From: Malacoraja senta
Taxonomy: Eukaryota
Direction of reading: 5' to 3'
DNA: 64,000 bases
NCBI GenBank assembly: GCA_038087875.1
Contig: CM075994.1
Coordinates: 5,644,001 to 5,708,000, forward strand
Shown here: positions 1,415-59,965 of the stretch, piece by piece
Position numbering within the stretch: position 1 is the stretch's first letter
Layout of the letters: each line of letters begins with the position of its first letter
Position numbers and translations under genes: made by a program
Notes under the pieces: model-generated
What the model was told of the DNA's origin: nothing
Seen by the model: only the letters and a program-made list of their open reading frames with translations
Databases searched by the model: none

Positions 1415-1441
1415 TGAGACAACTTCTCCTTAAAGACACTG
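1415..1441 (+). CDS. 27-nt micro-exon, (V)RQLLLKDT
   Basis: tatattccag|TGAGAC...GACACTG|gtaagg. Confidence 0.75.

Positions 1442-59965: not shown

Follow-up and report, generated by a model that had tools for sequence, protein, structure and literature searches.

Micro-exons in Malacoraja senta DNA point to an expanded coiled-coil-B30.2 gene of the kind annotated in sharks and rays

Whether a chain of segments of 24 to 36 nt, scattered over about 58 kb, can be the exons of a gene, and of which gene, is the question raised by this locus. The window analysed is one stretch of 64,000 nt of transposon-rich DNA (contig positions 5,644,001-5,708,000) from the 1.94-Gb assembly of Malacoraja senta, and coordinates below 1 or above 64,000 lie in its flanks. 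The original prediction listed 32 segments, of which 30 were found again at the sizes given (36 nt, 13 of 13; 30 nt, three of three; 24 nt, one of one; 27 nt, 13 of 15), while two 27-nt segments were not identified. All 30 are preceded by AG and have phase 1-1, with GT following 28 of them and GC the other two (17922 and 25303), as had been described. When concatenated by script they form 933 nt with no in-frame stop, whereas the remaining frames contain 37 and 18 stops, and every peptide that had been quoted is reproduced. The encoded peptide has the predicted coiled-coil-like make-up (K 17.7%, E 17.4%, L 11.3%, I 8.4%), and its top hydrophobic period is 3.45 residues. Two exon-plus-flank probes in BLAST, together with pattern scans, placed segments in two families on the + strand, an A-type of 36 nt (30 nt in three copies) and a B-type of 27 nt (24 nt in one). 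Two letters are corrected here, as exon 41774-41800 ends in T rather than G and exon 42580-42615 begins with TA rather than AA. One further micro-exon, at 63054-63083, is bounded in the same way, has phase 1-1, and was absent from the earlier list. In the following list, ray protein refers to the closest annotated protein, from the electric ray Narcine bancroftii, and paralogue to an inverted set of exons upstream.

1415..1441, + strand: 27-nt exon, inner peptide RQLLLKDT, starts TG; paralogue copy 21/27 identical with 4 synonymous codon changes; RQLLLKDT identical at position 64 of annotated relative P0007 (score 38)
2984..3019, + strand: 36-nt exon; matches ray protein position 135, INMLKEKLRYR; paralogue copy 24/36 identical
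10421..10456, + strand: 36-nt A-type array exon
16148..16174, + strand: 27-nt B-type array exon EISQYRKDA
16485..16520, + strand: 36-nt A-type exon; matches annotated relative P0008 position 340, VESLNHQLQQC (score 32)
17922..17948, + strand: 27-nt B-type exon, GC donor
19857..19892, + strand: 36-nt A-type exon; cag acceptor lost, 6-nt aaatag duplication forms the new acceptor
20249..20275, + strand: 27-nt B-type exon EDLLTRKVI
24872..24907, + strand: 36-nt A-type exon; score 36 to annotated relative P0008 position 340
25303..25329, + strand: 27-nt B-type exon, GC donor
25995..26024, + strand: 30-nt A-type exon; upstream cag lost, internal AAATAG serves as acceptor
27097..27123, + strand: 27-nt B-type exon EDSLTRKDT, one of 4 copies whose differences are 3 synonymous third positions
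27456..27491, + strand: 36-nt A-type exon, in a ~800-bp tandem unit (90.7% identity over 1575 bp)
27903..27929, + strand: 27-nt B-type exon EDSLTRKDT
28263..28298, + strand: 36-nt A-type exon
28714..28740, + strand: 27-nt B-type exon EDSLTRKDT
29064..29099, + strand: 36-nt A-type exon
29363..29386, + strand: 24-nt B-type exon DSLPRKDT; in-frame 3-nt loss, Thr-to-Pro change
31017..31052, + strand: 36-nt A-type exon, final Cys changed to Leu
35664..35690, + strand: 27-nt B-type exon EDSLTRKDT
36026..36061, + strand: 36-nt A-type exon; matches catshark protein P0012 position 256, IGNLKAKLRVC (score 28)
37420..37446 (about), + strand: B-type copy without AG acceptor, located by alignment; probable dead exon, outside the open chain
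40575..40604, + strand: 30-nt A-type exon
41774..41800, + strand: 27-nt B-type exon EGMLIRKDV, final T
42580..42615, + strand: 36-nt A-type exon, the only one starting TA, which fits the preceding exon's T
44465..44494, + strand: 30-nt A-type exon
44866..44892, + strand: 27-nt B-type exon DYLVTRKDV
45745..45780, + strand: 36-nt exon without intron similarity to the array
49699..49725, + strand: 27-nt exon ESKIKESQT; matches ray protein position 159, STLRESET; paralogue ETRLRETRT
53977..54012, + strand: 36-nt exon; paralogue copy 28/36 identical; matches annotated relative P0009 position 153 (score 34)
59939..59965, + strand: 27-nt exon EMKAIIHKD
63054..63083, + strand: 30-nt exon (A)GMTAIRKYK, ends in A, last micro-exon before the B30.2 exon; matches ray position 197, GITTIKRNR

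The pattern exceeds chance. On the + strand, 23 segments of 24-39 nt are open, have phase 1-1, and score well for splicing, compared with 4 on the - strand and a mean of 2.9 (sd 1.6, maximum 7) in 100 Markov shuffles. The observation holds, and the segments are real exons. That they are instead a dispersed repeat, or open AG...GT stretches arising by chance in a transposon or satellite family, is hardly credible. Such an origin would suit transposon-rich surroundings, and part of the intron beside exon 36026 is indeed dispersed, with 36 genome-wide matches to query bases 79-116; however, the exon part of the same query matched local copies on the contig only (4 of 40 matches). Both the strand asymmetry and the exon-level homology to annotated proteins described below also speak against a repeat.

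The original prediction took the chain for a hidden, stand-alone gene of micro-exons encoding a free coiled-coil rod. The stop-free joining and coiled-coil composition of the 30 exons agree with this, but the chain runs on in phase to -29.6 kb upstream and, downstream, into a B30.2 exon with a stop codon, so that a stand-alone gene is very improbable. The B30.2 exon (66011-66531) lies outside the window, 6 kb past the last exon of the earlier list. It was met as a 210-aa ORF at 65899-66528 in the flank, with a Pfam SPRY match at E 6.5e-12; its best acceptor lies at 66011 and shares phase 1 with every micro-exon, and its stop codon occupies 66529-66531. The start of the exon is PRY-like (LDPTTADPRYLF), and the exon reads ALKLDPTTADPRYLF... 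Among solved structures, the closest to the B30.2 domain is BTN3A1 (E 7.9e-22), and TRIM58, TRIM21, and pyrin are also among the best matches. Splice-bounded candidates matched to the electric-ray protein gave 12 exons that stand in the same order as in that protein, from -29.6 kb to the B30.2 exon.

Exon at -29641, + strand: ray protein position 12
Exon at -28104, + strand: ray protein position 20
Exon at -26258, + strand: ray protein position 29
Exon at -25197, + strand: ray protein position 38
Exon at -4485, + strand: ray protein position 65
Exon at -1429, + strand: ray protein position 117
Exon at 1415, + strand: ray protein position 126
Exon at 2984, + strand: ray protein position 135
Exon at 49699, + strand: ray protein position 159
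Exon at 53977, + strand: ray protein position 168
Exon at 63054, + strand: ray protein position 197
B30.2 exon at 66011, + strand: ray protein position 208

The junctions agree as well. The upstream exon at -1429..-1403 ends in A, which with the TG of exon 1415 makes Met, and the A of exon 63054 with TT makes Ile before ALKLDP, both as in the ray protein. The gene spans at least 96 kb on the + strand, from -29641 to 66531 in window coordinates (contig ~5,614,359-5,710,531); neither its 5′ end nor its start codon was found. A model of 44 exons that includes the array encodes 612 aa with no internal stop. A 19-exon model that leaves out 10421-45780 encodes 352 aa, also with no internal stop, and the ray isoforms have 353-378 aa.

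The closest protein, Narcine bancroftii XP_069775385 (372-378 aa), is 63% identical over 99% of the B30.2 exon (E 1.9e-70). It is named "zinc-binding protein A33-like" at source, with isoforms X1-X5 (XP_069775384 to XP_069775390). Its first ~200 residues are helical modules, and SPRY and a weak PRY are its sole Pfam matches, RING and B-box being absent; no signal peptide at its start, membrane segment, or Ig domain was found either. The collinear exons are a point of likeness to the present gene. The ray isoforms differ by 6- and 9-aa cassettes (18 and 27 nt). In contrast, at the place of the ~25 extra exons of the present gene the ray protein has a single 12-aa segment (DGQIPDSKPTID), and the ray gene, which may be an orthologue or a paralogue, lies on a 376-Mb contig whereas the present gene lies on one of 11.9 Mb. 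A phmmer scan with the ray stalk gave five proteins at E <= 0.001, as follows.

Narcine "zinc-binding protein A33-like", the query's own protein
A second Narcine protein, "golgin subfamily A member 6-like protein 22" (X7)
Two catshark proteins named "uncharacterized"
Catshark "TRIM39-like", which ends in B30.2

The catshark relatives include S. canicula "TRIM39-like" X1-X4 (XP_038672306 and others), LOC119975528, and S. torazame XP_072329362. Proteins of this family repeat the same modules in variable number (CKKL..AC, MRQLL.KD., EI..L..KL..C, LE.I.KDV, and.LLRLKD.), and the A-type array exons match inside annotated relatives at IGNLKAKLRVC and VESLNHQLQQC. Compared as proteins, the catshark relatives and the second Narcine relative share modules, vary in repeat number, and in some cases end in B30.2; they differ in that none has a run of ~12 near-identical 21-aa units and two are without B30.2. 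A 9-aa cassette (27 nt) distinguishes two catshark isoforms, and together with the ray cassettes this means that skipping of 18- and 27-nt exons is already annotated in relatives. The present gene carries an N-terminal helical region in the module order of the family, with its 12 collinear exons and a peptide, RQLLLKDT, identical in a relative, and a C-terminal B30.2 domain homologous to that of the family (Pfam SPRY, E 3.8e-12). By homology, then, it is a member of a coiled-coil-B30.2 family that is annotated but uncharacterised in sharks and rays. Relatives stand in the NCBI records of three cartilaginous fish species, which tells against a stand-alone gene and contradicts the "hidden" status that had been proposed. 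A literature search, judged by title and abstract, found no paper describing this family. Protein searches returned no protein identical to the B30.2 exon, and among proteins of 94-301 aa none of eight candidates reached E <= 1e-20.

Several known designs join a coiled coil to a terminal domain. Type II C-type lectin receptors such as CD23 have a stalk of 21-aa repeats. A CD23-like stalk was considered here and rejected, because a scan of ORFs across 264 kb gave no lectin-like WIGL, WND, or EPN/QPD motif and the protein ends in a B30.2 domain. TRIM proteins (TRIM21, TRIM58, TRIM7, and pyrin) are closer, with a coiled coil followed by a B30.2 domain that matches the present one at E 1e-19 to 1e-13, and NCBI names the relatives after TRIM proteins. 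A few larger exons encode the TRIM coiled coil, which is not known to be built from 27/36-nt arrays. The tripartite motif also comprises a RING finger and B-box, and neither was detected in the ray homologue or in the 104 + strand ORFs (at least ~58 aa) between -50 kb and 0. The gene thus fails as a TRIM gene, no RING or B-box having been found as far as -50 kb. The Pfam scans covered + strand ORFs, 104 upstream and 150 downstream (where there are ~166 more), and returned SPRY and transposon domains only; no Ig domain appeared among the 104 upstream ORFs. An upstream scan for transmembrane or signal exons gave hydrophobic stretches that are unconvincing and have no usable splice sites.

The nearest known design is that of chicken BG genes and butyrophilins, in which exons of 21 nt, one heptad each, stand in an array. 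According to two reports, chicken BG cytoplasmic tails are built from 27-37 exons of 21 nt whose number varies between genes, and the micro-exons of BG and butyrophilin genes are symmetric, encode coiled coil, and have a first codon split 1+2, that is, phase 1 (PMC5938342; PMC4046983). Butyrophilins are described there as having few heptad exons and then a B30.2 exon, and in both groups the heptad exons follow Ig and transmembrane exons, with BG lacking B30.2 (PMC5938342; PMC4046983). On this description, the present gene shares with them the array of symmetric phase-1 micro-exons encoding coiled coil, and with butyrophilins the B30.2 exon after the heptad exons, BTN3A1 being the best solved match. 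It differs in its unit, since their 21-nt exons encode one heptad each whereas the present 36/27 alternation (with 24 and 30 nt also present) encodes three heptads per pair. It also differs in that the Ig and transmembrane exons described for those genes were found neither at the present gene nor in the ray homologue.

A second set of related exons lies upstream on the - strand.

-45945..-45919, - strand: paralogue exon RQLLLKDK
-47814..-47779, - strand: paralogue exon EINTLKENLQDS
-56023..-55997, - strand: paralogue exon ETRLRETRT
-57226..-57191, - strand: paralogue exon EIEQIQAIRKDV
-68841..-68815, - strand: paralogue exon EVLLRLKDE

The paralogue is identical to exons 1415, 2984, and 53977 at 21/27, 24/36, and 28/36 positions, compared with 30, 25, and 26 of 80 in the 40-nt flanks on each side, and four of the five codons changed in exon 1415 are synonymous. 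Two further gene-paralogue exon pairs are weak (12/27 and 10/27 identical). The paralogue exons also match catshark modules strongly (scores 32-40). The outer exons are thus conserved coding sequence, since their identity to the paralogue exceeds that of their flanks and the catshark modules match, and their collinearity with annotated shark and ray proteins bears out the selection that had been proposed for them. The absence of intron similarity between the outer exons and the array also held, as BLAST gave matches of only 20 and 44 nt, at 45754 and 53974.

The inverted paralogue itself carries the exon order without the expansion, and the 264 kb examined yielded no B30.2 exon that would belong to it. 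DNA and translated comparisons between gene and paralogue were swamped by transposon matches, and only the exon-centred stretches 1403-1450 and 2977-3028 stood out. An element present ~1.4 kb upstream of exon 1415 and again, at a distance of 0.9 kb, upstream of the first paralogue exon was discarded as a dispersed SINE-like repeat; this repeat, not an exon, occurs at three places (-136..-25, 64323-64457, and -45001..-44882 on the - strand). A third paralogue downstream (119-161 kb, + strand, with candidates at 135612, 136663, 149606, and 150077) looked right by eye. It is not supported, because homologue matches numbered 7 and the reversed-query control gave 6.

The central 25 exons (10421-45780) are a tandem amplification of one 36+27-nt exon pair. 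Intron sequence is common to the array copies, and therefore whole exon-intron units were duplicated. A ~800-bp unit is repeated at 26.9-29.3 kb, and the youngest copies are ~90% identical. In a tree the A copies form two subfamilies, one of which has lost its cag acceptor. The frames of some A-type exons stay open past the donor for ~100-145 codons into the intron (28187-28624, 29063-29419, 30917-31207, and 37004-37309, + strand), in copies that are 80-90% identical. Open read-through of this kind may be a chance effect that recent duplication has multiplied; chicken BG genes, however, are described as having tails formed by read-through into an intron (PMC4046983).

How far the array is used decides between two readings of the locus. 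The segments are, in the reading that we consider probable, coiled-coil exons of one + strand B30.2 gene in which a 36+27-nt pair has been amplified and most array copies are spliced. The alternative, which is rather unlikely, accepts the gene but regards the copies in 10421-45780 as mostly unused intronic relics, with an mRNA encoding the ~350-aa form seen in the ray. Substitution in the array speaks for relics. Changes are spread evenly over codon positions with no third-position excess (18/20/17 in A and 14/17/11 in B), omega is ~0.63 for A and ~1.08 for B, and B-type exons change about as fast as introns (1.93 steps per column against 2.0-2.3). Four copies are damaged or odd, namely 37420 (no AG acceptor), 41774 (ending in T), 31017 (Cys lost), and 29363 (Pro gained). 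The array-less model is open and close in length to the ray isoforms. Furthermore, an array expanded to this degree was seen in no annotated protein; in a search for proteins of more than 662 aa sharing the stalk, none of the 194 candidates reached E <= 0.001.

Other features are harder to reconcile with relics. Positions +1 to +6 of the A-family donor hardly vary (0.17 steps per column, compared with 2.4-3.0 in introns). None of the 24 homologous array copies has a stop or an out-of-frame indel. In simulated neutral evolution, the probability that every copy remains stop-free is P = 0.06 in the A family and 0.30 in B. Indel intervals in exon columns number one in A (6 nt, in frame, in copy 19857) and none in B, while the flanks have 7-16 per 100 columns, from which ~6 would be expected in the exon columns. 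Lost acceptors have been replaced: in the cag-less subfamily an in-frame AAATAG 6 nt downstream yields a 30-nt exon, and in copy 19857 the 6-nt duplication restores 36 nt. Among the four EDSLTRKDT copies three sites vary, and every change is synonymous. Finally, the only exon that ends in T (41774) precedes the only exon that starts with TA (42580), and the two join as TTA, Leu; they may be a compensatory pair across the splice junction. Array copies therefore keep donors, frame, and openness while their residues drift almost neutrally. The test that had been proposed, exon against intron divergence, divides accordingly, with substitutions near the intron rate yet no build-up of stops or frameshifts. 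Taken together, these sequence features suggest that the array is probably spliced into mRNA.

The coiled coil had been expected to tolerate the skipping of any exon in frame and of any pair in heptad register. Phase 1-1 symmetry permits the first, but it fails at 41774, because its final T makes TAA or TAG with an exon that starts with AA or AG. Pairs of 36+27 nt (63 nt, 21 aa, three heptads) do keep the register, but the three 30-nt exons and the 24-nt exon shift it.

The favoured reading, of a gene with a largely spliced array, would describe the following history. The product would be a coiled-coil-B30.2 protein, in which no RING, B-box, Ig, or transmembrane part is detected, and the ancestral gene would have had ~19 micro-exons, each of 24-36 nt and with phase 1-1. 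In the Malacoraja senta genome one 36+27-nt pair would then have been amplified in tandem to ~25 exons at 10421-45780, most copies of which are probably still spliced, as cassette exons. The stalk would be an alpha-helical coiled-coil dimer that holds B30.2 ligand-binding heads. Its composition and 3.45-residue period suggest a helical structure, as does an AF2 model of the ray homologue, which is of low confidence (mean pLDDT 53.8) and has helices at 3-53, 61-147, and 158-196. The break at 148-157 in that model falls where the present gene carries the array. A coiled coil rises ~0.148 nm per residue. If the array exons are cassettes, stalk length could range from ~180 to ~440 residues, the 260 aa of the array adding roughly 38 nm. 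To judge from TRIM, butyrophilin, and BG proteins as analogues, a role in innate-immune sensing or as a scaffold is likely.

The locus shows that the BG genes of birds and the butyrophilin genes of mammals are not alone in having a symmetric micro-exon coiled coil beside B30.2, and the same design, with a different unit (36+27 nt, three heptads), occurs in a soluble shark and ray protein family. Were the array spliced, it would provide a natural protein "ruler" whose length is changed by exon duplication and skipping, as well as a difficult benchmark for gene finders and aligners, since these overlook exons of 27 nt. Were it not spliced, it would show how fast a duplicated exon pair can pile up in an intron with its splice sites kept. 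No long-standing question is opened by the locus, and the relatives are already in databases under misleading names. A bolder proposal, which we regard as doubtful, is that the family is a cartilaginous-fish counterpart of BG, in which cytosolic B30.2 sensors tune stalk length by gain, loss, and skipping of 63-nt pairs and the present locus is a recent and active expansion with diversifying residues. Stalk length would then be a fast-evolving and possibly polymorphic trait, of an origin either independent of BG or anciently related to it, and the array residues at the b, c, and f positions would be undergoing diversification, not decay.

The DNA around the exons holds several other features. 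Long gag/pol-like ORFs, recognised by eye, give 11410-15381 and 31329-33038 a retrotransposon-like character, with a partial second copy (87.8% over 1727 bp) that lies inside the array. Long ORFs resembling LINE endonuclease and reverse transcriptase, also recognised by eye, occupy 20503-24320 (+ strand) between exons 20249 and 24872. A reverse-transcriptase-like fragment at 56025-57352 is an inverted copy, 85.5% identical, of 5463-6789, and on either side of it stand CT-rich microsatellite blocks of ~1.2 kb (54301-55541 and 57387-58581). Far upstream, between -100000 and -80000 on the - strand, long ORFs are unusually dense in three frames and short motifs recur every few kb.
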